Notes: generated by a model not told the origin, from the sequence alone. Numbered from the stretch's first letter, positions 25 through 55,884 are shown. The stretch is 64,000 bases of DNA from an uncultured Candidatus Saccharibacteria bacterium (GCA_964592525.1 CAZQFB010000001.1:212413-276412); one strand, 5' to 3'. Numbers and translations are program-made.

Positions 25-1740
25 TTACAGATTTACCTTGCTATCTTTAAGATCCACGTGTGCTTTTTCTTTATCCACGGCGGTTTTGGGGGTAAATAAA
101 TGAGTAAGTAACTTACCCCCCGCATTCTTCCAGAAAGCGAAGGATTTCATGTTGACCTTAGTTTGGTTGGGATCAAAATCCAACAGATGTCCCATTAATT
201 TCTTGGCGGCAATCAGTAGGAATTTCATATCTGCCAGGCTTCTAATGGCCATAAGTTCTCTGAAAATAAATTGGGGGGACATGAAAGAGCTGTAGAGCTC
301 CTGTTCCAATTCTAGTATTTTCTCATGGGCAAAAGGCATTTTCATTACCGGTTGACGCATATCAAAATCTTCATACTCCTCGGTTAACAACCAACCTTTT
401 TCTTTACACTCCTTGTAAAGTGGAGTGCCGGGGTAGGGGATGACCAGCGTGGCTTGCATAGTTTTGTAATAACCTTTTTTAAAAGCATACTTGGCAATAG
501 CGATAGTCCTTTTGGCATCTTCATAGCTTTCCCAGGGATAACCTAGCATGATCGTGACATGGGGGTGCAGACCGGCTTTAGTGGCCATTTTAGGACCGTT
601 AATGGCGTCGGCTTCCAAAGTGCCTTTATCAAGTTTATCCAAAGTTTTCTGGTTGCCAGATTCCATACCGTAGAGAATAAACCTAAACCCAGCCTTGCCC
701 ATCAGATCATAGTATTCTTGAGTGAGGGCATTAAAGCGCATATTAATGCCGTACTTAATCTTTTTGTGATAACCACTCTCAATCATAAGCTCGCAGAACT
801 TTTTGAGCCTTGGACCAATCATAAAAGTGCCGGCGTCATCAAATACTTCTTTCACACCATAGTTATCCACCACATGCTTAACTTCGGCAAAAAGACGCTC
901 GGGTGACATGGAGCGATAGGATCCTTTCGGGTAGAGAGTGTTGTCCCACACGCAAAAGGTGCACCTATTCCACCAGCAATCACGGCCAGAGTACATATAG
1001 GTACCGGGGAAGTATTTATAGTTGCCATTTTCGTAGGCATATAATTTCCATTTAGTGAGCTCTCTATCCACAAAAGGCAGGTCATCCAGATTGTGTTTAA
1101 GCGAAGCTGGGCCGCTATTGCAGATTTTCTCTCCGGATATTAAGGTGTCGGTGCCCAAGGGTGTGGCTTTGATCAAGGTGTCTTCTGCCCGCCAAAATAC
1201 TCCACCCTCCAGTGCCTCTCCTTGGTGGATATGGTTAAGAAGATTCACAATTACAAAATCGTAATCACCTCCGGTAATGGCGTAATCAACGGGTGAGTGT
1301 TCGAATATTTCCAGAGGAAGATAAGTGATATGATCTCCTACCCAGATAAGCTTGAGTTGCGGGAAGCGCTTTTTAAGATCCTTTATTTGCTCCCAGTGCT
1401 TTTTGACGATAGGGGATTTGGTTTCCACCATTAGGTAATCGGGGTTTAGGGAAGCAAGCTCGTTGGCCCACTGTTCATAATTCTTCCTCTCCGCAATCCC
1501 GTCTAGCCAGTAGACTTTGTAGCCATGTTCCTTTAGCAAGGAAGCGGCGTAAGCGGGAACCATGGGATAGATGTAGGTGGGGGCATTGAAGTACTGAAAC
1601 TGTCTGTTTTGAGATAGAAGTGCCGTACCTTTGTGGCTTTCAATGGGTGGATATCCTACTACAACCTTAATATCAGATAGTGGTTGCTGATCCCTCGCCT
1701 CGGTAGATAAATTGTTGCTGGTTAAATCTTTAGCGCTCAC
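25..1740 (-). CDS. B12-binding domain / radical SAM enzyme (class B rSAM, possible methyltransferase)
   Basis: The N-terminal ~150 aa are Rossmann-like (VVVGYPP...ITGGDYD), typical of a cobalamin-binding domain. A Cys cluster RDCWWNRCTFC (Cx4Cx2C) follows at the position where radical-SAM CxxxCxxC normally sits. A TIM-barrel-like region lies downstream (GMESGNQ, VIPYPGTPLY). Confidence 0.55.
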   Translation of the reverse strand: MSAKDLTSNNLSTEARDQQPLSDIKVVVGYPPIESHKGTALLSQNRQFQYFNAPTYIYPMVPAYAASLLKEHGYKVYWLDGIAERKNYEQWANELASLNPDYLMVETKSPIVKKHWEQIKDLKKRFPQLKLIWVGDHITYLPLEIFEHSPVDYAITGGDYDFVIVNLLNHIHQGEALEGGVFWRAEDTLIKATPLGTDTLISGEKICNSGPASLKHNLDDLPFVDRELTKWKLYAYENGNYKYFPGTYMYSGRDCWWNRCTFCVWDNTLYPKGSYRSMSPERLFAEVKHVVDNYGVKEVFDDAGTFMIGPRLKKFCELMIESGYHKKIKYGINMRFNALTQEYYDLMGKAGFRFILYGMESGNQKTLDKLDKGTLEADAINGPKMATKAGLHPHVTIMLGYPWESYEDAKRTIAIAKYAFKKGYYKTMQATLVIPYPGTPLYKECKEKGWLLTEEYEDFDMRQPVMKMPFAHEKILELEQELYSSFMSPQFIFRELMAIRSLADMKFLLIAAKKLMGHLLDFDPNQTKVNMKSFAFWKNAGGKLLTHLFTPKTAVDKEKAHVDLKDSKVNL

Positions 1741-1781
1741 AGAGTTTGATTTTAAGGGATTAACTAGGGAGGAGCAAATAA

Positions 1782-2069
1782 TTAGTGTTGGGGGTAGATT
1801 TTCTCTCCGTTTTGGTAGACCTCAATCGCAAAAACAGGACAGCTCTGCGCCCCAGCTATTATCTTTTCTAGTTTATCCCACTCGCCTTTTTTGATAATGG
1901 CTATACCCTCCTCATCAAGGTCAAAGGTGTTCGGTGAATACACGGTGCAGGTAGCCGCACTAATACATTTATCCCGCAGAATGTGGATCTCAAGATCACC
2001 TTTTTTTACTATTTCTATGTTAGTTGGATAAGGATTGCTCATTATTACCGTTAAAATATCATCTACCAC
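1782..2069 (-). CDS. small ferredoxin (single-cluster Fe-S protein)
   Basis: A 95 aa protein with CISAATC...SCPVFAIEV, i.e. Cxx(A)xxC...CP spacing typical of small ferredoxins. It is co-directional with and immediately downstream of the radical SAM gene. Confidence 0.5.
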   Translation of the reverse strand: MVDDILTVIMSNPYPTNIEIVKKGDLEIHILRDKCISAATCTVYSPNTFDLDEEGIAIIKKGEWDKLEKIIAGAQSCPVFAIEVYQNGEKIYPQH

Positions 2070-2090: not shown

Positions 2091-3737
2091 TTAGTGGTTG
2101 TTTTGTGCCAACAGAAAAAGCCCGTATTTTTGATCAATTAGTTGCCAATCTCCCGTGGAGATTAGCTGCTGTAAATCGGCAGGTAGCGGAATGGTACCCA
2201 CAAAATTAGAGACTTCTTCAGTATCGTGTACTCCATTGACAGTATCTACTAATATATACTCTGCTTCTTTGTTTACGATAAAGGGATCAGCGGGTGAATA
2301 ATAAATCCATATCTTTTGTCTGGAGGAGAGAGCTCCTGTGAATTTATGATTAGTTGCAGTTGGTGCGTTTTTTGGAATTGAGGCGATCATTTGCCAAGCA
2401 ATTGTATCCCGGGGACTTAACTGGTAGCGAAAGCTGTCACTCTCGGTGAATAAGGCTTTGTATATTGGCGAGTACATATAAAAACCCCATAAGGTAGTTA
2501 TAAGAATTAGAAAAGGAATATAGCGAGCCTTTCTGAAGTATCTAGAAAGATTTGCATTTGCCTGGATAGCTCCAGTTATTAGGAAGGGAATAACGGCAGC
2601 AAAATAATATATCAATACGGGTAAGCGGAAATCCCGGGTTGATACATTGAGTAGAAAATTTCTTCCTATTGTCGGAAGTAGACCGATTAAGTATGTTGGG
2701 CTAAGAATGGGAATATACATAAATGGCTTAAGAAGTAAATTTTTCAAAAACTCTGTTTTTCTCACCTCAAAGAAGAAATCAATAAACGTATACCTGGTAT
2801 GTTCCCGCATATAGGCAATAATTTCATGAGCGTTACTTCCGAAATGACTGTAGTTATCCAAGGGACCATACCTGGGTATTTGCACCTGACTGTATTCAAG
2901 TAAATGTGCAGACCAGCGAGCTGAAATAATAAACCACAATAACCCAACAACTATTGGTACTAAACACCATTTGAATAAGTAGGTAAGCTGAATTTTAATT
3001 GTTTCTTTGTGGCTCGCAGTGAGGATTTTTTTCTTACTACTCTGCTTCCAAGTCAGCACAGTTTTCAAAATGAAGCTCCATTTATTGCCTCTCTTTAACA
3101 TCGGTAATAAGGTCTCAATTTTGTGACTTATTATCTGGAATATTCTGGCAATCAAGGTTAATAACCCAAAACTAGCAATCACTGGGGCGTTTGTTTCGTT
3201 ACACGAGAGAGCTAATACCATAGCTAACAGAAAAAGTTTGTATCTGCTCTGGATATAAAAGTAAATCATTAACAACAGGAAAAAGATTACATAAGTTTCA
3301 AATCTAAGATCAGAAAGCACAATCCAGTGTAATAAGGGGTTTAGCAGATATATTAGTGAAAACAGTACGGCTTGGTTTTTGTTTTTAAGAACTTTTTGCG
3401 CCATTAGAAATATCGGAATTGCTCCCAAGGAGAGAAAGAGAGTTTGTAAAAGTAGAAGCATAGTCACATCTGGCTTGAAGATATAAAAGGGCAGAATAAG
3501 AAACATAATTAGATCTACATGTTGACTAAAAAAGGGTAATCTTTCGTTGTTATATACTGTTTGGAAAAGAGGGTCTTTGCCATAACTTAGGTTATACATC
3601 GTCTGGTTTCTTTGACCAATGTCCATAGCCCACCAGGTTGAAAAAGACCTGTATTGATCGTTCGCCAGAGAGAAACCAATTAGTGTAAATATGGTTATCA
3701 CAGTGCCAAGTAATATCAAATAGTATCTTGATTTCAT
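2091..3737 (-). CDS. polytopic integral membrane protein, DUF2079-like (putative glycan-processing membrane protein)
   Basis: A 548 aa protein with more than 10 predicted TM segments, an N-terminal D-I-G-x-R-N-Q motif and a His-containing loop (SQHVDLIMFL). It sits at the edge of the glycosyltransferase island. Confidence 0.4.
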   Translation of the reverse strand: MKSRYYLILLGTVITIFTLIGFSLANDQYRSFSTWWAMDIGQRNQTMYNLSYGKDPLFQTVYNNERLPFFSQHVDLIMFLILPFYIFKPDVTMLLLLQTLFLSLGAIPIFLMAQKVLKNKNQAVLFSLIYLLNPLLHWIVLSDLRFETYVIFFLLLMIYFYIQSRYKLFLLAMVLALSCNETNAPVIASFGLLTLIARIFQIISHKIETLLPMLKRGNKWSFILKTVLTWKQSSKKKILTASHKETIKIQLTYLFKWCLVPIVVGLLWFIISARWSAHLLEYSQVQIPRYGPLDNYSHFGSNAHEIIAYMREHTRYTFIDFFFEVRKTEFLKNLLLKPFMYIPILSPTYLIGLLPTIGRNFLLNVSTRDFRLPVLIYYFAAVIPFLITGAIQANANLSRYFRKARYIPFLILITTLWGFYMYSPIYKALFTESDSFRYQLSPRDTIAWQMIASIPKNAPTATNHKFTGALSSRQKIWIYYSPADPFIVNKEAEYILVDTVNGVHDTEEVSNFVGTIPLPADLQQLISTGDWQLIDQKYGLFLLAQNNH

Positions 3738-3783
3738 TTTTTAGGGTAACATCTTTGATTATTATATCTGTTTATTGTAATTC

Positions 3784-4533
3784 ATGGTCAATAATAAAAC
3801 CATATCTGTAGTAATACCCTGTCACAATGAGGAGGAAAGTATTCTCCACACACTCTCCATGGTGCCAAAAGAGGTTGATGAGGTAATAGTAGTAGATAAT
3901 CTCTCAAGTGACAGGACTGCTTCTAATGCGCGTGAGGCTGGAGCTACTGTGGTTTTGGAAGAAAATAAGGGCTATGGTTATGCTATCAAGGCAGGTATCA
4001 GAAGCGCTTCCGGAGATGTGGTGATAGTCGCGGACGGTGATGGAACTTATCCTTTTGAGCTTGCGACTACTTTGGCTTCTCATCTTGTAACTAGTAACTT
4101 AGAGTTTATTTCCTGCTCAAGATTTCCTCTTACCACTAAAGAAAGTATGTCGCCGGTAAATGTGCTTGGAACAAAAATATTAAACCTCGTTGCCTTTATG
4201 TTGTATGGTGTTTGGTTTAGGGATATTCTCTCTGGAATGTGGGTTTTTAAAAGAGAGGCAGTAACGCAATTAGATTTGGTGAGTAATGATTGGAATCTTT
4301 CAGAAGAGATAAAGATAGAGGCGGCAAGGAAAACTAAATTTAAAGAGGTTCATATTAACCATAATGTTAGATTAGGTGAAACAAAATTGATGAAATGGTA
4401 CGTGGGTTTGGAAAATTTAGTTTTTCTTTTTTGGAAAAGGTTTTTCCCAACTCGCGCTTTACCAACCTGTTTTAGAATCACACAATATCAGAATAAGTTT
4501 GAACCTACACCAAATATAAAAAATGAAAAGTAA
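3784..4533 (+). CDS. GT2 family glycosyltransferase (polyprenol-phosphate sugar synthase-like)
   Basis: The N-terminal ISVVIPCHNEE...VIVVDNLSSDRT...GYGYAIKAGI...VVIVADGDGTYP is a classical GT-A/DPM-synthase DxD architecture. Confidence 0.75.
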   Translation: MVNNKTISVVIPCHNEEESILHTLSMVPKEVDEVIVVDNLSSDRTASNAREAGATVVLEENKGYGYAIKAGIRSASGDVVIVADGDGTYPFELATTLASHLVTSNLEFISCSRFPLTTKESMSPVNVLGTKILNLVAFMLYGVWFRDILSGMWVFKREAVTQLDLVSNDWNLSEEIKIEAARKTKFKEVHINHNVRLGETKLMKWYVGLENLVFLFWKRFFPTRALPTCFRITQYQNKFEPTPNIKNEK

Positions 4534-5971
4534 CCACACAAAAAATAGGCGAGTTGTTGTTATTGGTGCTGGTCCTACAGGACTCTCGGCGGCTTATTAT
4601 TTAGTCAATGGTGGTGGCGATGCAATTGTGCTTGAAAAGCAATCTGCTGTAGGTGGGATGGCTAAAACAATTAAGTACAAAGACATAAAGGTAGATTTTG
4701 GACCGCATCGTTTCACGCCCCACACTCAACAGGTTAAGGATCTGGTGTTTGACTTGATGGGTAGCAGTATTCTTATAAAACCACAGGTCTCAAAAATATA
4801 TCTTTGGGGAAACTACTTAAGTTACCCCTTAAAAATGACTTCTATACTTAGGTCTGTTAATCCCTTGATTCTTCTTAAGATCGGTTTTTCCTATCTACTC
4901 AAGCTTGTTAAGTCTGGTTTAAGGGGGGGTGCAATCAGAAATTATCGGGAGTATATGGAATATAATTTCGGACCATATTTAGCGCGAGAAGTATTTTGTC
5001 CAATAATTGAGAAGACTTGGAAGTTAGACCCTTCTGAAATTTCGCTTGATCTAGCGAAACAACGCGTAGCAATGGAGAGTTTGTTGAAGACATTTCTTAA
5101 TATTATTCTTAAAAGAAAACCAGCTGTATACGCTACGCAATTAATGCCAGCAGATCACTTCTATTACCCTCAAGGAGGTTTTGGGACTATTTCGGAGAAA
5201 CTAAAAGAAGAGATTCTAAAACAAGGAGGTCACCTTGAGTTGAAGGCAGAGTTAACCGGGATTATTTGTAAAAAGGGAAAGGCTACTGCTGTTACTTATA
5301 AACAAGAGGGTTTGACCAAAACAGTGCTCTGTGACTCGGTAATAGCTACTTGCCCCCTTACGGAAATAGTATCTAAGTTATCAGGTTGTGATATTCCAGC
5401 AGGGATAAAGCAGGCAAGTGAGCATCTTAAGTTTCGTCATCTGCGCATCCTTTTCTTAGTGCTTAATAGAAACAGGCTTAGTGAGGATATTTCTATATTT
5501 TATCCTGATTTGTCCTTGCCTTTTGGGCGATTGTTTGAGCAGAAGAATTACGATGAGCATATGGTGCCAGAGGGTAAAACTGTTCTGGGAGTGGAGTTGA
5601 CTTGTGCGGACGAAGACTATTACTGGTCTGTTTCGGATGAGGGATTAGGCAAGGAAATAATAAATTCGCTAGTAAAGGTGGGTCTTATTACTGCTGAAGA
5701 AGTGTTGGATTATTTCAGCCAGCGCAATTCTTTTTCGTATCCTGTTTATGATCTTGAGTATAAAGATAATTTAGAAAAATTAACCTTGTTTACCGATCAG
5801 ATAACTAATTTAATCATTGTAGGGCGAGCTGCCTCATTTTTATATAACAACACACACCACTCTCTGGAGATGGGTTATTTGGCTGCTAAGCAGGTGCTTT
5901 CAGGGGATGATACTATTAAAGAGTGGGCAAAAGACAGAGAACTTTTTCATTCGTATACGATAGTGGAGTAG
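4523..5971 (+). CDS. FAD/NAD(P)-binding oxidoreductase (amine-oxidase/CrtI/UGM-like fold)
   Basis: The N-terminal dinucleotide-binding motif is VVVIGAGPTGLSAAYYL...LEKQSAVGGMAKT (GxGxxG...E...GG). The protein is 482 aa. Its start overlaps the upstream GT2 stop by 11 nt, which suggests translational coupling. Confidence 0.65.
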   Translation: MKSNHTKNRRVVVIGAGPTGLSAAYYLVNGGGDAIVLEKQSAVGGMAKTIKYKDIKVDFGPHRFTPHTQQVKDLVFDLMGSSILIKPQVSKIYLWGNYLSYPLKMTSILRSVNPLILLKIGFSYLLKLVKSGLRGGAIRNYREYMEYNFGPYLAREVFCPIIEKTWKLDPSEISLDLAKQRVAMESLLKTFLNIILKRKPAVYATQLMPADHFYYPQGGFGTISEKLKEEILKQGGHLELKAELTGIICKKGKATAVTYKQEGLTKTVLCDSVIATCPLTEIVSKLSGCDIPAGIKQASEHLKFRHLRILFLVLNRNRLSEDISIFYPDLSLPFGRLFEQKNYDEHMVPEGKTVLGVELTCADEDYYWSVSDEGLGKEIINSLVKVGLITAEEVLDYFSQRNSFSYPVYDLEYKDNLEKLTLFTDQITNLIIVGRAASFLYNNTHHSLEMGYLAAKQVLSGDDTIKEWAKDRELFHSYTIVE

Positions 5972-5975
5972 ATCA

Positions 5976-6338
5976 ATGAACTCATCTTTCATCTTAATCC
6001 TTATTAACATTCTCCTAGCGGTGTCGGGGCAAACTTTTATTAAACAAGGTGTAGCTAAAGTTGGTGATTATTCGACAATGCCGGTAGTGTTGTTTTTCCA
6101 ACAGGCGCTCCTTTCTCCTTTTGTGATTTTAGGTGTGCTCTTATATATTTTATCTTCTTTTGTGTGGTTTCTTGTTCTTTCCAAATTAGATCTTAGTATA
6201 GCTTATCCAGCGTTAAGCTTAGGTTATATCCTGGTTTTGGCGATTGGTGTTTTTTATCTTAACGAACCACTGACATTTTACAAATTACTTGGTGTTATAT
6301 TTATTTGTTTGGGTACTTTTCTCGTTTTCCATAAATAA
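5976..6338 (+). CDS. small 4-TM SMR/EamA-like membrane protein (candidate lipid-linked sugar flippase subunit, ArnE/ArnF-like)
   Basis: A 120 aa protein with four hydrophobic segments. Its size and topology resemble SMR-type ArnE/F or GtrA-like flippases, and it lies immediately downstream of the GT2 and FAD-enzyme genes. Confidence 0.45.
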   Translation: MNSSFILILINILLAVSGQTFIKQGVAKVGDYSTMPVVLFFQQALLSPFVILGVLLYILSSFVWFLVLSKLDLSIAYPALSLGYILVLAIGVFYLNEPLTFYKLLGVIFICLGTFLVFHK

Positions 6339-6462
6339 TTCAATTTAACACCCAAGTTATTTTGAATGGTAAAAAGCTGAACGTATTTGACTGTTGCTAG
6401 AATACTGTTTATTACCTTGTGAATAAAAGGAGCTGAAGGCGCTTGCCTGAAACAGGTACAGG

Positions 6463-7500
6463 TTAGATTTTTCTTTGCGAATAGCCACTCTTGCCGGTAA
6501 AAAAGCCCTTGAGAAAGGCTACTCCGTAAGTAAGGTGCATTAGAAATAATACCACTGCGGATCTGAAAGCAGTAGTTATTTCTCCGCTTTTAAAAATAAT
6601 TTGGTAGATAAGATCAGATATTAGAATCAGGTAAAGCAATAAAGGCACGGAAAATATCGCCAAATAGTAGGAGGAGATCTTTGTCACCCCCAGATAGGTG
6701 CTACTTATCATTAGGAGTAAGGTGGCAAGGTAGACCACAAAAAGTGAGGGTACTAAATACCACCACCTTAGCGAGTTGGTGTCTCCCTGGGCAAAAAAAG
6801 CTCCTCGATGCTCTCCGTATTGAGCGTGCTGGTGCAAAAACTTGCGCAAGCTGTTTCTGCGGAAGTGATAAACCTGGATGGAAGGGTGATAGTAAATGCT
6901 ACCCCCTAGTATTTTGATTAGATCATTGCATAACTTGCTATCTTCACCCGGCCAGTATTTAACATCAAACCCATTGAGTTTGTTGAAAGCAGATTTCAAA
7001 ATAAAAAAATTCATGGTGGGAAAATCATCCACAAATCTGGGTTTTTCTTTTTGGAACCTGTAGCTCAACCCGCCACTCCCTAGCCAGGTACAAAGTAACG
7101 CGTCAAAGGCTTTTTCCCAAGGTTTGGCTTCTTTGGGCAACATGCCGGGTCCACAGATGGACATTACCTTTTGCTTTTTCAGATGATAACGAGCGGCTTC
7201 TAGCCAATCCGGTTCTGGATAGGCATCATCATCTATAAAGACTAGATATTTGCCTCTGGCTTGGCTGACACCAAGATTCCTTTTTTGTGAAGGGTGAGAA
7301 ATGTTTGGCGTCTCAATAATTTTGAGAAAGGGGTATTTTTTCTGAAGCCTTTTATCCCATTTAGTTGCTTTGTTTGGTAGCACGATGACCTCAAAAGAAT
7401 CTATCGTTTGCTTGGCTAAAGCAGGCAGGTTATATTTTTTAATAAAGGCATTTACCTTGAGGACAGGAATGATTATGGAGAAGGTTGGTTTCTTTTTCAT
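6463..7500 (-). CDS. GT2 family glycosyltransferase with C-terminal TM anchor
   Basis: FSIIIPV...EVIVLPN...YLVFIDDDAYPEPDWL is a GT-A fold with a DDD motif. The C-terminal ~80 aa are hydrophobic. Confidence 0.7.
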   Translation of the reverse strand: MKKKPTFSIIIPVLKVNAFIKKYNLPALAKQTIDSFEVIVLPNKATKWDKRLQKKYPFLKIIETPNISHPSQKRNLGVSQARGKYLVFIDDDAYPEPDWLEAARYHLKKQKVMSICGPGMLPKEAKPWEKAFDALLCTWLGSGGLSYRFQKEKPRFVDDFPTMNFFILKSAFNKLNGFDVKYWPGEDSKLCNDLIKILGGSIYYHPSIQVYHFRRNSLRKFLHQHAQYGEHRGAFFAQGDTNSLRWWYLVPSLFVVYLATLLLMISSTYLGVTKISSYYLAIFSVPLLLYLILISDLIYQIIFKSGEITTAFRSAVVLFLMHLTYGVAFLKGFFTGKSGYSQRKI

Positions 7501-7574
7501 AGTAATTACTATTGTGCGTCTTATATTACCTAATCATCGCCTAGTGTGCAAAAAATGCTATAGTATTTGCTGTT

Positions 7575-8441
7575 ATGGTAAAAGATGTTTCTATTGTCGT
7601 GCCGGTGTATAACGAAGAAAAAGGTATTTCTGCGGTTGTTACCGAAATTAGTCACAAAATCAAAGAGCTAGCACTTAACGCTGAAATTATCATTGTGAAT
7701 GATGGTTCTACGGATAACACGGCTTCCCTTCTGAACAAGTTAGTTAAAGAGCACCAAAATTTGCGGGTGTTAACTCATAAGGGCAATCGTGGTTACGGTG
7801 CGGCTTTAAAAACCGGTATTTTGCAGGCTAATCAGGAAACAATCGCGGTGATTGATGCTGATTGCACCTATCCTCTGGATCATTTTCAAGATCTGCTAGC
7901 GGGAATGGACGAAGCCGATATGGTCGTGGGAGCACGAACAGGAGACACGGTAGAAGTGGAAACTCTGCGCCGACCGGCTAAATGGTTCCTACGCAAATTG
8001 GCTGGCTATTTGGCTGAACGGGATATTCCCGATGTGAACTCGGGTTTTAGAGTGTTTAACCGTGAAATTGCGCTTAGCTATTTTCATATTCTCCCTAATA
8101 AGTTTTCTTTTACTACTACCATTACCTTAGCCATGTTTGCCGATGACTATACGGTGGCTTACGTGCCCATAAATTATTATGGTCGCAAAGGTGATTCCAA
8201 AATTAGACCCTTTGATGCCTGGAATTTTTTGGTGCTAATTCTGAAAACTATTTTTTACTTTAATCCGTTGAAGATAGTGTTACCGTTAGCCCTGATTACC
8301 GGTTTAGCGGGCTTAAGTAAATTGGGTTATGATGTTTTGGTCTTAGATAACCTAACCGATACTACTGTCTTGCTGATTCTCTTCTCCATCCAAATCCTAG
8401 GATTTGGTTTACTGGCCGACTTGATCGTGAGGCGAACGTGA
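7575..8441 (+). CDS. GT2 polyprenol-phosphate glycosyltransferase (DPM synthase / GtrB-like) with C-terminal TM helices
   Basis: VSIVVPVYNEE...IIIVNDGSTDNT...GNRGYGAALKTG...AVIDADCTYP, with two C-terminal TM segments. Confidence 0.75.
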   Translation: MVKDVSIVVPVYNEEKGISAVVTEISHKIKELALNAEIIIVNDGSTDNTASLLNKLVKEHQNLRVLTHKGNRGYGAALKTGILQANQETIAVIDADCTYPLDHFQDLLAGMDEADMVVGARTGDTVEVETLRRPAKWFLRKLAGYLAERDIPDVNSGFRVFNREIALSYFHILPNKFSFTTTITLAMFADDYTVAYVPINYYGRKGDSKIRPFDAWNFLVLILKTIFYFNPLKIVLPLALITGLAGLSKLGYDVLVLDNLTDTTVLLILFSIQILGFGLLADLIVRRT

Positions 8442-9421
8442 ACCCTACTTTAAAGAAATACCTGCTCCCCGCCATTCTGTCATTCGTATTTCTCTTCTTT
8501 CTTTTTAAATTGATTGGTGATCCAAAAGCCTTTATTGAAAACATCTTTAATCTCAACCCTTATTATTTGGGGTTGGCTTTTATCTTTTATACGATAGTCG
8601 CTATCGCTCGTTCCTTAAGAATCCAAGCAGTATACCCGGAGGAAAAGTATCCTTTGGGGAAACTGGTGGCAGTATCTAACCTACACACCTTTATCAGTAA
8701 TGTTTTCCCTTCCCGTTTGGGGGAGTTTTCTTTTATTTACCTGATGCGCAAAGTATTTGGTCAACATGCCGGCCGTAACACCATTGCTCTAATCTTTGTG
8801 CGCATTATGGATACTTTTACCGTCGCCTCTTTTTTCATTGTGTCCGCCGGTATTGTGGGGTTTACTCATGCTGGCATAGATCACCTGTGGGTTTTCTTTA
8901 TGCTAGTGGTCCTGCTCGGGTTAGCCTCTTTCTACCTTGATATTTTGGTTAATATTGGGGTGTCATTAGTAAAAGCTATCATCTCCCTAGTTAAGCTTGA
9001 AGGTGTTAGCCCTGTTCGCAAGCTATTGGATTTTTTAGATGCTTTGCTAGGTTTTAAGATGCTTCGTTCAAAGGGAGTTTATGGGCGAACCATGTTTCTT
9101 TCCTTTGTGGTGTGGACCTTTTTAATGCTGGCGAATAAAGCGATGACCATGGCCATGGGTCTGGATCTTACCTTTCCGGTGCTCTTTTTTGCATCCACTG
9201 GAGCGGTGCTCACCAGTTTAATACCGGTGACGACCTTTGCGGCGGTGGGTACCTATGAGTTGGGGTGGATTGGCGCCTTTGCTCTGATTGGGATGGGTAG
9301 GGAAGAGGCTATTATTACCGGTTTAACTATTCACACGATCAACTTTGTCTTCTCGGCAATTTTGGGTGGATTGGGGTTTTTGGTGATAAATAAAAGTACC
9401 CGACAACAAGAAACCCCATAG
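8438..9421 (+). CDS. UPF0104 / lysyl-PG-synthase-TM-like flippase-like membrane protein
   Basis: A 327 aa polytopic protein. The N-terminal KKYLLPAILSFVFLFFLFK...LNPYYLGLAFIFY...ARSLRIQ is typical of the flippase-like domain family that is often paired with GT2 enzymes. Its start overlaps the upstream GT2 stop. Confidence 0.55.
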   Translation: MNPTLKKYLLPAILSFVFLFFLFKLIGDPKAFIENIFNLNPYYLGLAFIFYTIVAIARSLRIQAVYPEEKYPLGKLVAVSNLHTFISNVFPSRLGEFSFIYLMRKVFGQHAGRNTIALIFVRIMDTFTVASFFIVSAGIVGFTHAGIDHLWVFFMLVVLLGLASFYLDILVNIGVSLVKAIISLVKLEGVSPVRKLLDFLDALLGFKMLRSKGVYGRTMFLSFVVWTFLMLANKAMTMAMGLDLTFPVLFFASTGAVLTSLIPVTTFAAVGTYELGWIGAFALIGMGREEAIITGLTIHTINFVFSAILGGLGFLVINKSTRQQETP

Positions 9422-21755: not shown

Positions 21756-22460
21756 ATGTTTTTATCAGTAGTAATTCCTGTTTATAACGAAAGAAATACG
21801 ATTAGAGAGATTGTGGCTAAAGTGTATAACCTCAATATCAATAAAGAGATTATTTTGGTTGATGACGGCAGTACTGATGGTACTATCCAGGAACTTAAAA
21901 ATATTGAGCGTGAGTTTGACGAGGTGAGGGTGATCTTCCACAGCCGAAATCAGGGCAAAGGAGCGGCTTTGCGAACTGGTTTTGGCCAGGTGAAAGGTGA
22001 TTATGTTATTGTCCAAGATGCCGATTTGGAATATGATCCCGCAGATTTCCACAAACTTTTGGAAGTGGTAGAAAGTGGTGAGGCTGAAGTGGTTTATGGT
22101 TCCCGCTTTGTAGGCAAAACTAAGCGAGATATTTACCGCAAAGGCAACATGCATTGGCTGCATTTGATAGGTAATAAATTCCTGACCAAAGCGACCAACC
22201 TTTTATATGGAGTAAAGCTTACGGATATGGAAACATGTTACAAGTTAATACCCGCCAATTTGATTCGTCAGATTAAGATCAGGTCCGATCGGTTTAACTT
22301 TGAACCGGAAATTACCGCTAAAATTTTAAAAAGAGGCTACAAAATAAAAGAGGTGCCTATCCACTATTCTGGTAGGGAAATGAGTGAAGGTAAAAATATC
22401 TCTTGGCGAGATGGTCCTGCGGCGCTTTGGGCTCTGATCAAGTTTAGGTTTATGGAATAG
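21756..22460 (+). CDS. GT2 polyprenol-phosphate glycosyltransferase (DPM synthase-like, soluble form)
   Basis: LSVVIPVYNE...IILVDDGSTDGT...NQGKGAALRTG...VIVQDADLEYDP. Confidence 0.75.
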   Translation: MFLSVVIPVYNERNTIREIVAKVYNLNINKEIILVDDGSTDGTIQELKNIEREFDEVRVIFHSRNQGKGAALRTGFGQVKGDYVIVQDADLEYDPADFHKLLEVVESGEAEVVYGSRFVGKTKRDIYRKGNMHWLHLIGNKFLTKATNLLYGVKLTDMETCYKLIPANLIRQIKIRSDRFNFEPEITAKILKRGYKIKEVPIHYSGREMSEGKNISWRDGPAALWALIKFRFME

Positions 22461-22462
22461 CT

Positions 22463-24028
22463 ATGTCCGTTAATTCGCGTATTGCTGTAGATTCTATAAA
22501 AACAGCTATAGCCACTTTTGGTATGCAGGCTGTGGCTTTTGCGGTTTCTATTCTGGTAGCTCAATTTTACGGAGCTACTAAGGTTATGGATGCCTACTTT
22601 TTTGCTTTAGCAGTTCCGGCTCTTTTTACGGCGGCCTTGTTTGGTGCTCTGAAAGCTGTTTTTATTCCGGTTTACACTGATTATGTTAGTAAACATCCCA
22701 AACAGAAGCAAGCGGTTTTGGGGGCAGCTTATAGTAGTGTAACACTGCTGTCGGTGACGGCCGCGCTGCTGCTTTATTATCTCGCTCCCTTGCTCATGCC
22801 CTTAGTGGCTTCTGGACTAGAAGGGGAAGAAGCCAAGTTGTTGGTGGTCACACTCGCTCGGGAATTAATGCCTTTGGTAGTGCTCTCCTCAATCATTGGC
22901 TTGATGAATTCTATTTACCAAGCCGAGCAGCGATTTGTCATGCCCATTCTGACTCCTTTTGCTCGTAGTTTGGTGTTATTTATTTTTGTTGTTTTTTTCC
23001 GAGATCAATTGGGCATACACGCTTTAACCTATGGTTCGGTTTTGGGTGAGCTGTTAAACCTGTTGCTCATGTTTGGGGCGCTGAAAGTTCGCGGTATTTA
23101 CTTTGGCTTTAGATCCATGTTTCACCCAGTTATTAAAAGAATGGCTAGGTTGTCCATAGCTCCATTGGTAGGTAACCTGGTTCTCGAGTTTAATCCTTTG
23201 GTGGATAAGATTATGATCGCTTCTACGGCGGTTGGTTCGGTAACTGCTTTAAACATAGCTTATAAATGGAACGATATCCCTCTCATGCTTCTAAGCTCGG
23301 GTGGATTTATGTCGGTTATTCTTTCTCATTGGTCCAAACTCAAAGCTGAAGAAGATATGGATAAAGTGGTCCAAAGTTTGCATCAGTCTCTAACCATGGT
23401 GGTCTTTATCTTAATGCCTTTTCTAACTGCCTTTTTTGTTTTACGTTCAGAGATTATCACCTTTTTTTACCTTAGAAAGGAATTTAGTGTGGAAGCGGCA
23501 GATAATGTGGCTTTATTATGGGGTGTTTTGCTTTGGGGTGTTCTGCCCGTTCTCACCGGTCGTATTTTGGTGCGGGTGTATCATGTGATGCAAGATACCT
23601 CCACTCCATTTTGGATAGGTATCTCCCGTACCATTCTCAATATAGTCTTAAATTTCATTTTCAAGGCTATGTTTGGGTTGGTGGGGATAGCTATTTCAAG
23701 TATTGTGACCCAATACATCCTCACCACTATTAATTTTTACCTATTAAAGAAAAAACTTTTTCAGCTTGAGTTGAGATTTTTAACTCTTTCCTGGCTTAAG
23801 ATATTTTTATGTGCTCTGCCCATGGCTTTGGTGATGAGGTTTAGCTATCATCCTTTGCTCAATCTTGCTCAAATTATCATTAATCAAGAACTGCTTTATC
23901 CTGTGCTGGCCATAGGTGCCACTTCTTTTCTTGGGTTACTGATCTATTTATTAGTCTCAAGAGTAATTAAACTGGCTGAATTTGAGCTGCTCTTTTCCAA
24001 TATGAGTAAATTGCTGCGCAAATCTTAA
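22463..24028 (+). CDS. MurJ/MviN-family (MOP superfamily) lipid-linked glycan flippase
   Basis: The N-terminus SRIAVDSIKTAIATFGMQAVAFAVSILVAQFYGATKVMDAYFFALAVP matches the MurJ signature region. The protein is 521 aa with about 14 TM segments. Confidence 0.65.
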   Translation: MSVNSRIAVDSIKTAIATFGMQAVAFAVSILVAQFYGATKVMDAYFFALAVPALFTAALFGALKAVFIPVYTDYVSKHPKQKQAVLGAAYSSVTLLSVTAALLLYYLAPLLMPLVASGLEGEEAKLLVVTLARELMPLVVLSSIIGLMNSIYQAEQRFVMPILTPFARSLVLFIFVVFFRDQLGIHALTYGSVLGELLNLLLMFGALKVRGIYFGFRSMFHPVIKRMARLSIAPLVGNLVLEFNPLVDKIMIASTAVGSVTALNIAYKWNDIPLMLLSSGGFMSVILSHWSKLKAEEDMDKVVQSLHQSLTMVVFILMPFLTAFFVLRSEIITFFYLRKEFSVEAADNVALLWGVLLWGVLPVLTGRILVRVYHVMQDTSTPFWIGISRTILNIVLNFIFKAMFGLVGIAISSIVTQYILTTINFYLLKKKLFQLELRFLTLSWLKIFLCALPMALVMRFSYHPLLNLAQIIINQELLYPVLAIGATSFLGLLIYLLVSRVIKLAEFELLFSNMSKLLRKS

Positions 24029-40026: not shown

Positions 40027-41241
40027 ATGCTACAATATCTGTGTATGACTACGCACAACATAGTATGCCTTTCGACCCAGCTTTGGGATGATCCCATGTG
40101 GACCAACAAACAGCACGTCATGAGCCGTTTGGCCAAAAGGGGTCATAAAATTATGTATGTTGATCCTCTCATCAGGATTAGGATGCTAGCCAGTAACATG
40201 GTCTTCAAAAGGAGATATTCTCCTAAAAGGCTTTTCACCTTTAAAAAAGAAGTAGAGAATAATCTCACAGTTTTATCTCCCGTGAAGTTTCTCTTTTCAA
40301 AAGAGAGGGAAAGAAGATTTAATTTGAAATTGATTAATAGAACAATCAGTCAGTCTGCAATCAATAAACCCATTCTCTGGGTTTATGATCCCGATTTTGC
40401 TGATTATGTGGAGCAGATACCCCATCAACTACTTATATATGATTGTGTGGATGATTACTCAAACATGCCCCAGGAACGTTACCCCGATAACAAAAAAGCA
40501 GAGATCATTGAAAAGGAGAAGAAGCTTATTAAAAGAGCAGATTTGGTTTTTGCCACTTCGCCTTTTCTTTATAAATTAAGAAAAGAGCAAAACCCAAATA
40601 CTTACTACACTCCCAATGTGGCGGATTTTGAGCATAACAGCCAAGCTCTTAAAGAAACGTTAGCCGTACCTGAAGAAATCAAAGATTTAGCCAAACCAAT
40701 CATAGGTTTTCAAGGTAATCTTTCTGCCTATAAATTTGATTTTGATTTGCTTGAAGCCGTTATCGCTAGTCACCCAGAATGGTCCTTTGTGTTTATTGGG
40801 CCGGTGGAAACCAGTAAAACCCTGACCGATACCTCTCGTAACACTCAAGTAGCTAAGCTGGAAAAACATGAAAACACACACTTTTTAGGTGTCCAACCTT
40901 ATGAACGATTACCCGCCTTTTACAAAGCTTTTGATGTCGCTATCATGCCCAATAAACAAAATGATTATAACCGCAGTTCATTTCCGCTTAAATTTTTTGA
41001 GTTTCTAGGAGCTGGTTTACCGGTGGTAATGACAAAATTACCTGCTTTGGCAGAATTTTATAATACTTCTGGAGTCTATGTTTCCGTTAGTGTGCAAGAT
41101 TTTATTAGGAACTTAGAGGAAGCTGTAACTAAAGGTCGCGCTTTTAGTCAAGAGGATAGATTGGTGCTCGCTAAACAGTACTCCTGGGAAAGTAAGATAG
41201 ATACTATGATAGCTTTGATTGAGGAAAGACTTAATAAATGA
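40027..41241 (+). CDS. GT-B fold glycosyltransferase (GT4-like)
   Basis: The C-terminal FFEFLGAGLPVVMTKLPALAEFY has a GT-B architecture. Confidence 0.5.
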   Translation: MLQYLCMTTHNIVCLSTQLWDDPMWTNKQHVMSRLAKRGHKIMYVDPLIRIRMLASNMVFKRRYSPKRLFTFKKEVENNLTVLSPVKFLFSKERERRFNLKLINRTISQSAINKPILWVYDPDFADYVEQIPHQLLIYDCVDDYSNMPQERYPDNKKAEIIEKEKKLIKRADLVFATSPFLYKLRKEQNPNTYYTPNVADFEHNSQALKETLAVPEEIKDLAKPIIGFQGNLSAYKFDFDLLEAVIASHPEWSFVFIGPVETSKTLTDTSRNTQVAKLEKHENTHFLGVQPYERLPAFYKAFDVAIMPNKQNDYNRSSFPLKFFEFLGAGLPVVMTKLPALAEFYNTSGVYVSVSVQDFIRNLEEAVTKGRAFSQEDRLVLAKQYSWESKIDTMIALIEERLNK

Positions 41242-42470
41242 TTTCGGATAAAGTTCAAAAAATACTGGTCATACTGCTTCTTGTTATTATGGGCGTGTAC
41301 TTGTGTTGGATGATTTTGGCTGGCTTTTTAAACCAGGGGGTGTCGGACTTTGCCACTTATTATCATGCTACAACTTTCGCACTGGCAGAGGATTGGAGGA
41401 ATCCTTACAGCAATCTTGCTCCTTTTCCTCCTTACTATTACCCACCACCGTCAATTCTGCTCTTTGCACCACTTACTTGGATGGATCGGACCATAGCTAA
41501 AACCGTTTTCTCCTCATTATCTGTGGTGGTCATGTTTTTATCGGTGTGGTTGATCATTAAGTTGAGAGGCGAGTCTCTAAGTGATCTACAAAAAACTATC
41601 TGTTACGCGATACCTGTCTTTTTCTACCCCTTCTGGTTTACTGTGGACGATGGTCAAGTAAACGCCTATCTCCTGTTATTGATCACCCTAACCTACTATT
41701 TTTATGAAAAAAATCGGGGGGTACTATCCGGGATGTTCCTTTCCCTTGCTATTCTTTTCAAAATAACCCCAGCGCTGATGGCTGTTTATTTATTGTTTAA
41801 GAAAAAGTACAAGATCATTTTGGTGGGTGGCTTGGTGTTTATTGTGCTGACTGTTGCCTCCGAGATGAGGTTGAAACCAGGGATAAATTGGATGTATTGG
41901 CGGTACATTGTTAATGATGTTTCGGCGCAAGGCGGTCCTGGTTATCGAGATCAGTCTCTTAATTCTTTTATTATGGAAACTGGGATAGTTGAATATCTCT
42001 GGGAAAATAAATTAAGGTATTTGTCTTTGCCCTCAAAAGTTGATGAACACGTGGTGACCAACCTGGTTAATTATGCCATTGTGGGGGTACTTTCACTATT
42101 TATATTTTTCAAATCTATTAAAGAGAAGGTGACCGAAACTTCAACTATTATTTATGAGTATTCCTTGCTGACTATTATTGCTGTAGTTGGGTCTGGGTTA
42201 ACCTGGTATCACCAATATACCATGCTCCTATTTCCATTTTTAATAGCGGTGATTGCAGTGATGAGAATGATCCCGTCCAAGAGACGCGTGATTTTAACTT
42301 TTATTCTTGCCGTGGCTTATGTCTTAATGGCAGTTAGTTTAGAAAGGCAAATCAATGTTGCTGATAGGTTGGTTGATTTTCAAAGGGGTGTGATGTTTTA
42401 TGGGGCTGTTTTAACGGCTTTAGTTCTGGGGTACTTTAGATATAGCCCTAGTTTTAAGGAGAGAAAATGA
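41238..42470 (+). CDS. DUF2029 / GT87-like membrane glycosyltransferase
   Basis: The N-terminus VSDFATYYHATTFALAEDWRNPY...YPPPSILLFAPL matches the DUF2029 DF-x2-YY...NPY...YPP pattern. The protein is polytopic. Confidence 0.5.
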   Translation: MISDKVQKILVILLLVIMGVYLCWMILAGFLNQGVSDFATYYHATTFALAEDWRNPYSNLAPFPPYYYPPPSILLFAPLTWMDRTIAKTVFSSLSVVVMFLSVWLIIKLRGESLSDLQKTICYAIPVFFYPFWFTVDDGQVNAYLLLLITLTYYFYEKNRGVLSGMFLSLAILFKITPALMAVYLLFKKKYKIILVGGLVFIVLTVASEMRLKPGINWMYWRYIVNDVSAQGGPGYRDQSLNSFIMETGIVEYLWENKLRYLSLPSKVDEHVVTNLVNYAIVGVLSLFIFFKSIKEKVTETSTIIYEYSLLTIIAVVGSGLTWYHQYTMLLFPFLIAVIAVMRMIPSKRRVILTFILAVAYVLMAVSLERQINVADRLVDFQRGVMFYGAVLTALVLGYFRYSPSFKERK

Positions 42471-54158: not shown

Positions 54159-54312
54159 CGTTAGGGATATGAGAAGTTGCGACCAACGGGAGCAATTTGG
54201 GTGGAGAAGTCTGCAAGACTTCGTAACCTCATATCCCTTGTTATATTCCCCGAAGGGCTGAAATTTAGTGCAACGTCCCGAAGGGAAATTTCAGAGTTGC
54301 TCGGCGGCGGCG
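54158..54312. repeat. repeat element A (imperfect palindrome GGGATATGAG...CTCATATCCC, a duplicated CCCGAAGGG motif and the IR arm ttgctcggcggc)
   Basis: The inverted-repeat arms lie at 54158-54167 and 54208-54217. A CTAACGTTAG palindrome overlaps the recO stop. ttgctcggcggc at 54297-54308 is the reverse complement of 55152-55163. Confidence 0.5.
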
Positions 54313-55125: not shown

Positions 55126-55300
55126 ACTATTTTCCTTAAAGTTTATAATTGTTTTGATTTAGCCGCCGAGCAATTGAATATAACGTCTGCGTGTATGAGA
55201 AGTTTCGCCGACTTCTCTATTATCTATAAAATGGAGGCGAAATTTGGGTGAAAGAAAAAGTGCAACCCTTGAAAATCATTAACGCACTTTTTCTTGAATC
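55126..55300. repeat. repeat element B (degenerate copy of element A: GTGTATGAGA...TCTCATACAC palindrome, atgagaagtt / aatttgggtg / agtgcaac blocks)
   Basis: The inverted-repeat arms lie at 55181-55190 and 55290-55299. It shares ordered sequence blocks with element A, and gccgccgagcaa at 55152-55163 is inverted relative to A. Confidence 0.5.
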
Positions 55301-55326
55301 TCATACACACTGTTATCGGATGTAAT

Positions 55327-55809: not shown

Positions 55810-55884
55810 TTAAAAAAAATTATTAAATTATTTCCGATAACTGGTAATTATGCAATTATTATAATATAACATATACCATATTAT

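Follow-up and report, generated by a model that had tools for sequence, protein, structure and literature searches.

A GT2 enzyme, a UDP-galactopyranose mutase-like flavoprotein and a small SMR-fold membrane protein as a possible furanose-donor module in a Saccharibacteria glycosylation island

The window, that is the whole stretch of 64,000 nucleotides analysed here, contains near its start three genes on the same strand that encode a GT2 enzyme, a flavoprotein and a small membrane protein (Table 1). Re-calling genes in the window returned these three ORFs where an earlier note on this DNA had placed them, packed in an operon-like manner, and bore out its suggestion that the first two are translationally coupled, the flavoprotein ORF opening with an ATG inside the GT2 gene, such that the two share 11 nt. 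Between the flavoprotein stop codon and the small ORF there are 4 nt, and a GGAG is located 8 nt upstream of the small ORF's ATG. Judged from the sequence, the GT2, flavoprotein and small membrane protein genes are predicted to form an operon, and since the next gene is convergent this three-gene unit would end at 6338. On the other side the gene for a DUF2079 protein is divergent from the GT2 gene, and the 46 bp between them are presumed to hold the promoters of both operons; a scan for consensus promoters and terminators gave nothing significant and no better than shuffled sequence.

Table 1. Genes and intergenic features at the locus, numbered from the first nucleotide of the window.
Feature	Position	Strand	Size	Remarks
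B12-binding radical SAM protein	25-1740	-		Radical_SAM + B12-binding; co-oriented with and downstream of DUF2079
Ferredoxin	1782-2069	-		Fer4_13/15; co-oriented with and downstream of DUF2079
DUF2079 polytopic membrane protein	2091-3737	-		PF09852, 124 bits; candidate cognate GT-C-type transferase
Divergent intergenic region	3738-3783	.	46 bp	AT-rich; read from sequence
GT2 gene	3784-4533	+	249 aa
Flavoprotein gene	4523-5971	+	482 aa
Small membrane protein gene	5976-6338	+	120 aa
Convergent next gene	6463-7500	-

The GT2 is predicted to be a polyprenyl/dolichyl-phosphate sugar synthase of the DPMS/GtrB/AglJ-like type. It matches Pfam PF00535 with 70 bits, its best NCBIfam matches are AglJ (118 bits), dolichyl-phosphate hexose transferase (103 bits) and PpgS (56 bits), all below the equivalog cut-offs, and its best solved relative is the dolichol-monophosphate mannose synthase of P. 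furiosus (5mlz; 1.5e-9, residues 6-203). A DGD motif at residues 84-86 supplies the DXD required of GtrB-like GT2s, and VRLGETK (R-x-G-E-T-K) aligns to RGESK of the P. furiosus enzyme, such that family, curated matches, solved relative and motifs agree on the polyprenol-phosphate-sugar-synthase-like character first proposed for this protein. The enzyme has one hydrophobic interface segment (127-145) and no C-terminal TM domain.

The flavoprotein is predicted to be a pyranose/furanose mutase resembling UDP-galactopyranose mutase (UGM) rather than a generic amine oxidase, CrtI or protoporphyrinogen oxidase (PPO), and it is assigned to the UGM family on the combined strength of sequence profile, predicted fold and active-site residues. 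It carries a GxGxxG motif (GAGPTG at 15-20) of the FAD-binding Rossmann type and matches the Pfam families Amino_oxidase (67 bits), NAD_binding_8 and, weakly, GLF (27.4 against a cut-off of 26.3, covering only profile positions 98-171 of 203). When a profile of 79 homologs was compared with the PDB, eukaryotic-type UGMs of A. fumigatus or T. cruzi were matched at 7.6e-62 (212 bits) as against 2.3e-25 (92 bits) for PPO. Likewise, Foldseek ranks 34 UGM chains of A. fumigatus or T. cruzi (E 5e-31, TM 0.78-0.82) ahead of all other PDB matches of the AlphaFold model (pLDDT 94.5), with PPO at 1.5e-25. The curated UGM model TIGR00031 was not passed (35 bits, cut-off 304). The closest curated family is PRK07208 (NF005548, 'hypothetical protein'), the best NCBIfam match with 295 bits over the full length, below the cut-off of 389; it has no assigned function, and a literature search found no paper mentioning it. 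The family is large, with about 1,000 clusters (50% identity) at E ≤ 1e-30. Homologs are labelled protoporphyrinogen oxidase (JGI auto-annotation) or hypothetical protein.

The earlier note had described an FAD-binding protein of the amine-oxidase/CrtI/UGM fold that could be a nucleotide-sugar mutase or an oxidoreductase acting on the sugar or on the polyprenol. The UGM part of this description is supported by profile and Foldseek, and the mutase is the only one of the three functions that fits profile, fold and active-site residues. Matches to proteins of the CrtI/CrtD/HpnE/FAD_binding_3 type are confined to about residues 10-100 and these candidates were rejected; the likeness to CrtI, geranylgeranyl reductase and amine oxidase is that of the N-terminal dinucleotide-binding motif only, leaving sugar oxidation and polyprenol saturation unsupported. 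PPO (HemY), an identity that the note had named as grounds against its own reading, was also rejected, with 44 bits against the TIGR00562 cut-off of 98 and UGM ahead in both the profile and Foldseek comparisons. In favour of a true oxidoreductase, carrying out DprE1-like oxidation or epimerisation of a lipid-linked sugar or saturation/desaturation of the polyprenol chain, are the amine-oxidase/PPO/CrtI superfamily fold of the flavoprotein, a ferredoxin gene nearby and the precedent of DprE1/DprE2, where a flavoenzyme acts on a lipid-linked sugar. Such a function is improbable, however, as the matches to CrtI, HpnE, geranylgeranyl-type reductase and amine oxidase reach no further than the first 60-100 residues, what is invariant in the family coincides exactly with the catalytic set of UGM, an enzyme without net redox chemistry, and no conserved partner reductase adjoins the flavoprotein in related loci.

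Active-site residues were compared in the numbering of the A. fumigatus enzyme (AfUGM), taking the nine residues common to all UGMs from Table 2 of PMC3322874, and the window flavoprotein keeps eight of the nine. Positions kept (AfUGM/window) are H63/H62, W167/W166, R182/R181, R327/R336, E373/E358, Y419/Y406, R447/R435, Y453/Y441 and N457/N443. Among the 79 homologs H63, W167, R182, R327, E373, Y419 and R447 are each kept in at least 75 and Y453 in 63, with the uracil-stacking Tyr104 present as Tyr in 71 and as Phe in 8. Replaced in the window protein are Y162 (I161), N163 (I162), W315 (S324), Y317 (F326) and Q107 (K104). Throughout the clade of GT2-linked flavoproteins Tyr162 is changed to Ile/Leu, Asn/Thr163 to Ala/Val/Ile and Trp315 to a small residue, with Gln107 variable and Tyr317 changed to Phe in the CPR subclade, while the remaining family retains Tyr at 162 and Thr at 163. 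In UGM Tyr162 and Tyr317 contact the diphosphate, Asn/Thr163 the ribose and Gln107 the uracil; with these nucleotide-holding contacts lost, the GT2-linked clade is a poor fit to a nucleotide-sugar substrate.

The small membrane protein is a candidate flippase or carrier for the lipid-linked sugar, with a predicted SMR fold of the ArnE/ArnF-like kind. Hydropathy and an AlphaFold model (pLDDT 91) give four TM helices, and the model best matches EmrE/Gdx-Clo (TM 0.62-0.70) at a Foldseek E-value of only about 0.05. In Pfam the protein reaches EamA at threshold (28.3), and its NCBIfam scores for ArnF (57 bits, cut-off 99) and ArnE (33 bits, cut-off 92) both fall short; taken with the model, these matches are consistent with the four-TM SMR/EamA-like protein of 120 aa described previously. 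It is of this type rather than of the GtrA family (PF04138), and phmmer against the PDB gave no match. In published work, SMR/GtrA-type proteins have for the most part not been proven to act as flippases. A drug-efflux SMR, the second identity that would have spoken against a functional link, is not indicated: drug-pump models score low (EbrB 23 and Smr 16.5 bits, with cut-offs of 160-200), residues 1-30 contain no Asp or Glu, such that the Glu14 hallmark of drug-efflux SMRs is absent, and TM1 is free of acidic residues in all 15 homologs. One of the homologs is auto-annotated 'EmrE-like'. That the locus merely brings together unrelated housekeeping genes, with a protoporphyrinogen/amine oxidase beside a drug-efflux pump, is barely credible, since the database labels that suggest it, both for this homolog and for those of the flavoprotein, are opposed by the PPO scores in the TIGR00562 and profile comparisons, by the missing TM1 glutamate and by the pump-model scores. 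Orthologs of the small protein lie 3′ of the flavoprotein in L010 and L019 and ahead of it in L030.

Related loci were sought with a 10-sequence flavoprotein alignment, the 79-sequence alignment being too diverse. The nearest genome match was a Saccharibacteria MAG with 47% identity. Of 18 informative related loci, which come from several phyla, 17 have a DPMS-type GT2 no more than 2.5 kb from the flavoprotein ortholog, the GT2/flavoprotein junctions usually being overlaps or gaps of 1-2 nt, and this arrangement is not due to chance. Orthologs of the window GT2 stand next to the flavoprotein in L005, L011, L013, L015, L016, L019, L020, L022, L023, L025 and L026; their E-values are 1e-42 to 1e-64, compared with about 1e-16 for the other GT2 type. 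The GT2-linked clade occurs in Chloroflexota, Elusimicrobiota, Bacillota and CPR contigs beside a GT2, a GT-C and a small membrane protein of the GtrA, SMR or LPG-synthase-TM type, with GtrA or LPG_synthase_TM proteins replacing the SMR-like protein in other phyla and PMT_2 GT-C proteins holding the position of DUF2079 in other loci. The order PMT_2 GT-C, GtrA, GT2, flavoprotein is found in L005, L013, L020, L022, L023 and L026 (true GtrA, PF04138, fills the small-protein role in L005, L013, L022, L023 and L026), GT2, PMT_2, flavoprotein in three Elusimicrobiota loci, and GT2, flavoprotein, SMR in L019, while in L011 flavoprotein, GT2 and LPG_synthase_TM are followed by an epimerase, a nucleotidyltransferase and a GHMP sugar kinase. 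This GT-C/GtrA synteny in other phyla backs the original proposal that the GT2 and the small flippase-like protein would make and export a lipid-linked monosaccharide for GT-C enzymes. It also bears on whether the flavoprotein could be an ordinary nucleotide-sugar mutase serving the cytoplasmic GT4 and GT2 enzymes of the island, its adjacency to the GT2 having no special meaning. Possible users of an NDP-furanose are present in the window, in the form of about 10 GT4 genes and further GT2s, and distant family members (31-33% identity) occur in unrelated gene contexts, without a link to glycosylation. This is nevertheless very improbable, as it is one specific GT2 subfamily that adjoins the flavoprotein, in loci from at least four phyla that have no other surrounding genes in common and with start and stop codons that overlap, and as a GT-C and a flippase-like protein regularly co-occur.

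Further genes of the window may belong to the same system. The DUF2079 protein has at least nine hydrophobic segments, and DUF2079 is a family that we take to belong to the GT-C clan. In L030 and L031 an SMR-like/flavoprotein pair has a homolog of the DUF2079 protein (BLASTP 1e-11) about 1.5 kb upstream, and we infer that the DUF2079 protein may be the enzyme that uses this sugar donor. Literature searching found no paper that mentions DUF2079, and phmmer against the PDB gave no match for the protein. At least 11 PMT_2 genes lie within 35 kb, with DUF2079 as the divergent neighbour. No nucleotide-sugar biosynthesis genes were found in the window, which counts against the furanose-donor reading given below, as do the unrelated gene contexts of the distant family members. 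The ferredoxin and the B12-radical SAM protein are possible accessories whose membership is uncertain; the best NCBIfam match of the latter is HpnJ at 143 bits, far below the cut-off, and the flavoprotein has homologs of it nearby in L009 and L016. As a speculation, the ferredoxin might keep the flavin of the mutase reduced.

The locus is best read as an extracytoplasmic glycosylation system of the Gtr-like kind that includes its own pyranose-to-furanose mutase, which would supply polyprenyl-phosphate furanose. That the three genes are such a furanose-donor module, in which a lipid-carried furanose is made and exported to cell-surface glycosyltransferases, is given about an even chance (roughly 0.5), a furanose being proposed because the flavoprotein resembles a ring-contracting sugar mutase and not an oxidoreductase. 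In a first step the flavoprotein would convert a nucleotide-activated pyranose to the furanose with reduced FAD as the nucleophile and no net redox change, the furanose form being thermodynamically disfavoured. The coupled DPMS-like GT2 would then move the furanose at once onto polyprenyl phosphate at the inner membrane face, such that this unfavourable equilibrium is pulled forward, and the SMR-fold protein, probably as a dimer, would carry or flip the polyprenyl-phosphate furanose to the outer face. Finally a GT-C enzyme, for which the DUF2079 neighbour is the first candidate and the PMT_2 paralogs of the same 50-kb island are alternatives, would place the furanose on a cell-surface glycan or protein. 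To our knowledge all UGM-family enzymes characterised so far have nucleotide sugars as substrates, and UDP-Galf is accepted by GT2 enzymes such as GlfT1/2. In favour of this reading, too, one member of the flavoprotein family is a fusion with an RmlD-like nucleotide-sugar reductase. The lipid-linked furanose donors known are only pentofuranoses made from PRPP (PMC11127046), and the module would thus fill a plausible gap. A literature search found no precedent for lipid-linked galactofuranose donors or for UGM combined with GtrA. Of the earlier reading of the module, the lipid-linked sugar unit and the mutase option are retained and the oxidoreductase and polyprenol-saturation options are dropped.

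The steps could also run in the opposite order, with the GT2 making a polyprenyl-phosphate pyranose on which the flavoprotein then acts as a mutase at the membrane, polyprenyl phosphate taking the place of UDP as leaving and returning group and the SMR-fold protein presenting or exporting the product. Within the flavoprotein family there are fusions to GtrA (GtrA_DPMS_TM), LPG_synthase_TM and EamA modules and members with C-terminal TM anchors, which hint at a membrane-bound substrate and count against the main reading; the contig with the GtrA fusion is too short to show its gene neighbourhood. In addition, the GT2-linked clade has lost the contacts of UGM to the alpha-phosphate, ribose and nucleotide (Y162, N/T163, W315 and partly Y317) and kept those to the sugar and beta-phosphate (R182, R327, Y419, Y453, N457, E373 and H63), and the gene order GT2, flavoprotein, small membrane protein fits. 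A hydrophobic amphipathic helix at 112-133, where AfUGM has a charged helix, is a weak hint only, as hydrophobic-moment analysis of the helical domain for membrane association was inconsistent across homologs. Against the opposite order, the membrane-module fusions fall in a subgroup still with the full nucleotide-binding set, Tyr104 is conserved, and we know of no UGM-type enzyme with a non-nucleotide substrate. Moreover, DPMS-type GT2s are inverting enzymes whose sugar phosphate product is hence beta-linked, whereas alpha-linked substrates are those of the UGM site. On balance this order is rather unlikely, and it is only tentatively that the GT2-linked clade might be regarded as the first UGM-type mutase on a lipid-linked sugar, working in complex with a GtrA- or SMR-type carrier; if so, it would define a previously unknown class of hexofuranose donor for GT-C enzymes that spans Chloroflexota, Elusimicrobiota, CPR bacteria and archaea.

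Animals lack furanose sugars, which in microbes are important as surface antigens and drug targets. The sole route for extracytoplasmic furanose addition in bacteria that we know of starts from PRPP and serves pentofuranoses only, and a lipid-linked furanose donor route is so far undescribed for six-carbon sugars. If the furanose-donor reading holds, hexofuranoses or other NDP-derived furanoses would have their missing route in the GT2-mutase-flippase module, a large and mislabelled orphan family would gain a function, and there would be an initial way into the GT-C-based envelope glycosylation of CPR bacteria, which is unusually rich.

Among known systems, the eukaryotic-type UGMs (A. fumigatus 3UKH/3UTE, T. 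cruzi 4DSG) share with the flavoprotein the size of about 480 aa and the three-domain fold (TM 0.8), the histidine loop (G-P-H in the window protein, G-G-H in UGM), both catalytic arginines and Glu373, Tyr419, Arg447, Tyr453, Asn457 and Trp167, with the eukaryote-specific W-x-Y-F-P motif kept in the wider flavoprotein family. Identity is only 18-22%, however, and the uridine, ribose and alpha-phosphate contacts Gln107, Tyr162, Asn163, Tyr317, Trp315 and Asn207 are replaced in the GT2-linked clade. Unlike UGM, the flavoprotein shares its operon with a polyprenyl-phosphate GT2 and the small membrane protein, and some of its relatives are fused to membrane modules. With the Gtr-type systems (GtrA/GtrB/GtrC; CsbB/GtcA/YfhO; GacI/J/K/L) the module would have in common a DPMS-like GT2 that makes a polyprenyl-phosphate monosaccharide, a small membrane protein as the proposed flippase and a GT-C as the final transferase. 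The window has an SMR-fold protein where the Chloroflexota module loci have a genuine GtrA, its GT2 is without the C-terminal TM helices of GtrB, and the module includes a fourth component, which is flavin-dependent; known Gtr-type systems deliver pyranoses (Glc, Gal, GlcNAc) and the product proposed here is a furanose.

The layout also resembles ArnC/ArnE/ArnF/ArnT, in which a GT2 loads undecaprenyl phosphate, small SMR-fold proteins serve as exporters and the lipid-linked product is used by a GT-C of the PMT_2 family. ArnF and ArnE are the best curated matches of the small protein, but all scores are far below the equivalog cut-offs, the window has one small gene in place of two, ArnA/B/D homologs are lacking in the module and the flavoprotein has no Arn counterpart. 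The proposed purpose is shared by the three-component pentofuranose systems and the mycobacterial decaprenyl-phosphate arabinofuranose pathway, which likewise provide an exported lipid-linked furanose for GT-C enzymes, the latter including the flavoenzyme DprE1 and the small membrane protein Rv3789 (PMC11127046). These routes start from PRPP via a phosphoribosyltransferase and need no mutase to arrive at the furanose, and DprE1 is a true oxidase of the VAO fold; the window module instead has a GT2 as entry enzyme and a UGM-like flavoenzyme, implying a hexose or other NDP-sugar origin.

Direct reading of the open reading frames in the window confirmed the three genes claimed by the earlier note, encoding a GT2, a 482 aa flavoprotein and a 120 aa membrane protein, in their places (see table). 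With a divergent DUF2079 gene on one side and a convergent GT2 gene on the other, the three genes behave as a self-contained operon; scanning the module for consensus promoters and terminators contributed nothing.

Features of the window in and around the three-gene module
Feature	Position (nt)	Strand	Remarks
B12-binding radical SAM protein and small 4Fe-4S ferredoxin	25-2069	-	co-oriented with DUF2079
DUF2079	2091-3737	-	46-bp gap to module GT2
Module GT2	3784-4533	+	
Flavoprotein	4523-5971	+	ATG 11 nt inside GT2 gene end
120 aa membrane protein	5976-6338	+	starts 4 nt past flavoprotein stop codon; GGAG upstream
GT2	6463-7500	-	convergent
DPMS-like GT2	7575-8441		overlaps next gene
LPG_synthase_TM	8438-9421		
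ORF, 316 aa	9422-10372		no Pfam or NCBIfam match
PMT/PMT_2 paralogs	15595-38187, 41238-42470, 44766-47555		ranges cover near-tandem array, GT87 and Wzy_C-PMT_2 fusion
ORF, 475 aa	20304-21731		no Pfam or NCBIfam match
DPMS-like GT2	21756-22460		3 nt before next gene
MurJ/MATE-like gene			pair with preceding GT2 spans 21756-24028
Low-GC patch	54000-56800		GC 0.347 (~0.42 elsewhere)
Tyrosine recombinase	55885-56733		within low-GC patch

A single-sequence PDB search with the flavoprotein already placed eukaryotic-type UDP-galactopyranose mutases (UGMs) at the top over the full length. A profile of 79 homologs matched the Aspergillus fumigatus (AfUGM) and T. cruzi enzymes at 7.6e-62 to 1e-58 (~210 bits), with bacterial UGM at 3.5e-26 for the N-terminal part only and protoporphyrinogen oxidase (PPO) at 2.3e-25. 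For CrtI, amine oxidases and LSD1, matches to this profile were confined to the dinucleotide-binding motif. In keeping with the profile, each of the best 34 Foldseek matches of the AlphaFold model (pLDDT 94.5) was a UGM chain (lowest E 5e-31, TM ~0.8), PPO following at 1.5e-25. The family comprises 1,037 clusters at 50% identity (E ≤ 1e-30), labelled PRK07208 'hypothetical protein' in NCBIfam and 'protoporphyrinogen oxidase' by JGI, and no literature on it was found; the closest genomic relative of the flavoprotein, at 47% identity, is in a Saccharibacteria MAG. The public-pipeline PPO label on homologs P0005, P0007, P0012 and others is misleading, since profile and fold comparisons lead to UGM.

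Nine active-site residues are common to all UGMs (van Straaten et al., PMC3322874). With AfUGM numbering first and the window residue second, H63/H62, R327/R336 and Y419/Y406 are kept in 79/79 homologs, W167/W166, R182/R181 and R447/R435 in 78/79, E373/E358 in 75/79 and Y453/Y441 in 63/79; Y162 is replaced by I161 in the window, being tyrosine in 57/79 homologs. As the invariant residues of this orphan family are the UGM catalytic set, they argue strongly for a predicted UGM-type ring contraction rather than ordinary oxidoreductase chemistry. A true redox role is improbable, and of the options raised previously for the flavoenzyme a mutase holds while polyprenol saturation does not.

The module GT2 falls among polyprenyl/dolichyl-phosphate sugar synthases in Pfam and NCBIfam (AglJ, dolichyl-phosphate hexose transferase, PpgS, ArnC), passing the equivalog cut-off for none of its NCBIfam matches. 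Its closest solved relative is Pyrococcus dolichol-monophosphate mannose synthase (DPMS), aligned over residues 6-203, a stretch that takes in both the R-x-G-E-T-K motif and the DXD motif (DGD 84-86). With no TM domain at its C-terminus and a single hydrophobic interface segment, it is reminiscent of a 'split' DPMS.

The 120 aa protein has four helices by hydropathy and AlphaFold modelling, the model best matching EmrE and Gdx-Clo (TM 0.62-0.70), and among curated models ArnF (57 bits) and ArnE (33 bits) outscored drug pumps (16-23 bits). An acidic residue in TM1 was absent from it and from 14/14 homologs, such that Glu14, the defining residue of SMR proton/drug antiport, is missing. That a housekeeping PPO is here paired with a drug pump is barely credible.

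In 17/18 informative loci the flavoprotein homolog has a DPMS-type GT2 no more than 2.5 kb away, which makes incidental adjacency of the three genes very improbable. In 11 orthologous loci (L005, L011, L013, L015, L016, L019, L020, L022, L023, L025, L026) the adjacent GT2 matched the module GT2 at 1e-42 to 1e-64, as against ~1e-16 for the other GT2 type of the window, and it usually overlapped the flavoprotein gene or was separated from it by 1-2 nt. The order PMT_2(+DUF7846) GT-C, GtrA, GT2, flavoprotein occurs in Chloroflexota/Dehalococcoidia and related metagenome contigs (L005, L013/L024, L020, L022, L023, L026), PMT_2, GT2, flavoprotein in L003, GT2, PMT_2, flavoprotein in three Elusimicrobiota loci, flavoprotein, GT2 in L016 (Bacillota), and the window's own order with an SMR-fold protein in two CPR contigs (L010, L019). 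In L011 flavoprotein, GT2 and LPG_synthase_TM are directly followed at 5492-8090 by an SDR epimerase/dehydratase, a sugar-1-phosphate nucleotidyltransferase (HddC/MurU/ManC-like) and a GHMP sugar kinase (HddA/fucokinase-like), a trio that makes up a salvage route to an NDP-sugar, possibly the one used by the module. That the small membrane partner may be GtrA, an SMR-fold protein or LPG_synthase_TM suggests non-orthologous displacement, in line with a generic role as lipid-linked-sugar carrier or flippase. Other members of the family are fused to GtrA_DPMS_TM, LPG_synthase_TM (archaeal contig), a 10-TM EamA domain or an RmlD-like nucleotide-sugar reductase, and ~600 aa members carry C-terminal TM helices; such Rosetta-stone fusion and TM-anchored members include P0274, P0165 (L035 7001-9514), P0273, P0269 and P0047/P0066/P0087. 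L030 and L031 couple a member of the other subgroup with an SMR-like gene, amid DUF2079, Wzy_C and GT-C-like genes, so that the divergent DUF2079 of the window can reasonably be proposed as the cognate transferase. The B12-binding radical SAM protein of the window (best match HpnJ, far under cut-off) and its ferredoxin may serve in sugar modification or electron supply; B12-rSAM homologs also occur at most 4 kb from the flavoprotein in L009 (8356-9828, Micrarchaeota) and L016 (3498-4997).

The module lies in an envelope-glycan island occupying the first 52 kb of the window. At least 11 PMT/PMT_2 paralogs, with a 929 aa fusion of Wzy_C (O-antigen ligase/polymerase-like) and PMT_2 and a GT87 near their array, make this single locus unusually rich in transferases that depend on lipid donors. 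The island also has ~10 GT4 genes, a Bac_transf initiating transferase and three more DPMS-like GT2 genes, of which two are each coupled to a flippase-like gene of another kind (LPG_synthase_TM, MurJ-like). Several lipid-linked sugar donor modules seem to be encoded here in parallel; no nucleotide-sugar synthesis genes were found in the window. Beyond the island lie recO, a recombinase and the dcw cluster, the low-GC patch before the latter (MBL-fold hydrolase, zeta-toxin/CPT-like kinase, tyrosine recombinase) possibly being a small mobile insertion.

The earlier reading of a lipid-donor module is upheld, and with a probability of about 0.75 we regard it as a Gtr/Arn-like system that contains its own pyranose-to-furanose mutase and supplies polyprenyl-phosphate furanose to GT-C enzymes. 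At even odds, the flavoprotein would convert a nucleotide sugar from pyranose to the minor furanose form, which the coupled GT2 would trap on the lipid as polyprenyl-phosphate furanose for delivery to GT-C enzymes. To our knowledge NDP-sugars are the substrates of all known UGM-family enzymes; this, the retention of the uracil-stacking Tyr104 together with both diphosphate arginines, and the RmlD fusion favour this order. DPMS-type GT2s invert the anomeric centre, and a product so inverted would not suit the UGM site, which also counts for action on the nucleotide sugar.

In the clade formed by the window flavoprotein and its 12 nearest cluster representatives, F66 is replaced by T, Y162 by I or L, N/T163 by A, V or I, W315 by a small residue and, in the CPR subclade only, Y317 by F, substitutions not seen elsewhere in the family, which retains the UGM residues. 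In AfUGM the contacts to the diphosphate come from Tyr162 and Tyr317 (the latter at the alpha-phosphate), that to the ribose from Asn163 and that to uracil from Gln107 (PMC3322874), indicating that the nucleotide end of the pocket is remodelled with the sugar/beta-phosphate end conserved. That these contacts are lost in exactly the clade linked to GT2 and other glycosylation genes, together with the membrane-module fusions, would suit a mutase acting on the lipid-linked sugar, which we consider the less likely of the two orders. The evidence for the module is consistent and purely computational, and its reading as a mutase-containing donor system allows a sharp, inexpensive experimental test.

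Measured against curated UGM, ArnE/F, SMR pump, PPO and CrtI families, the module proteins fail thresholds or defining residues. In its proposed mode of working the module is like the Gtr, Arn and CsbB/GtcA/YfhO systems. Its purpose would be similar to that of pentofuranose three-component systems, described recently, and of the arabinofuranose pathway of mycobacteria (PMC11127046), in which the furanose comes from PRPP chemistry, whereas in the module it would come from a UGM-like flavoenzyme with its GT2.
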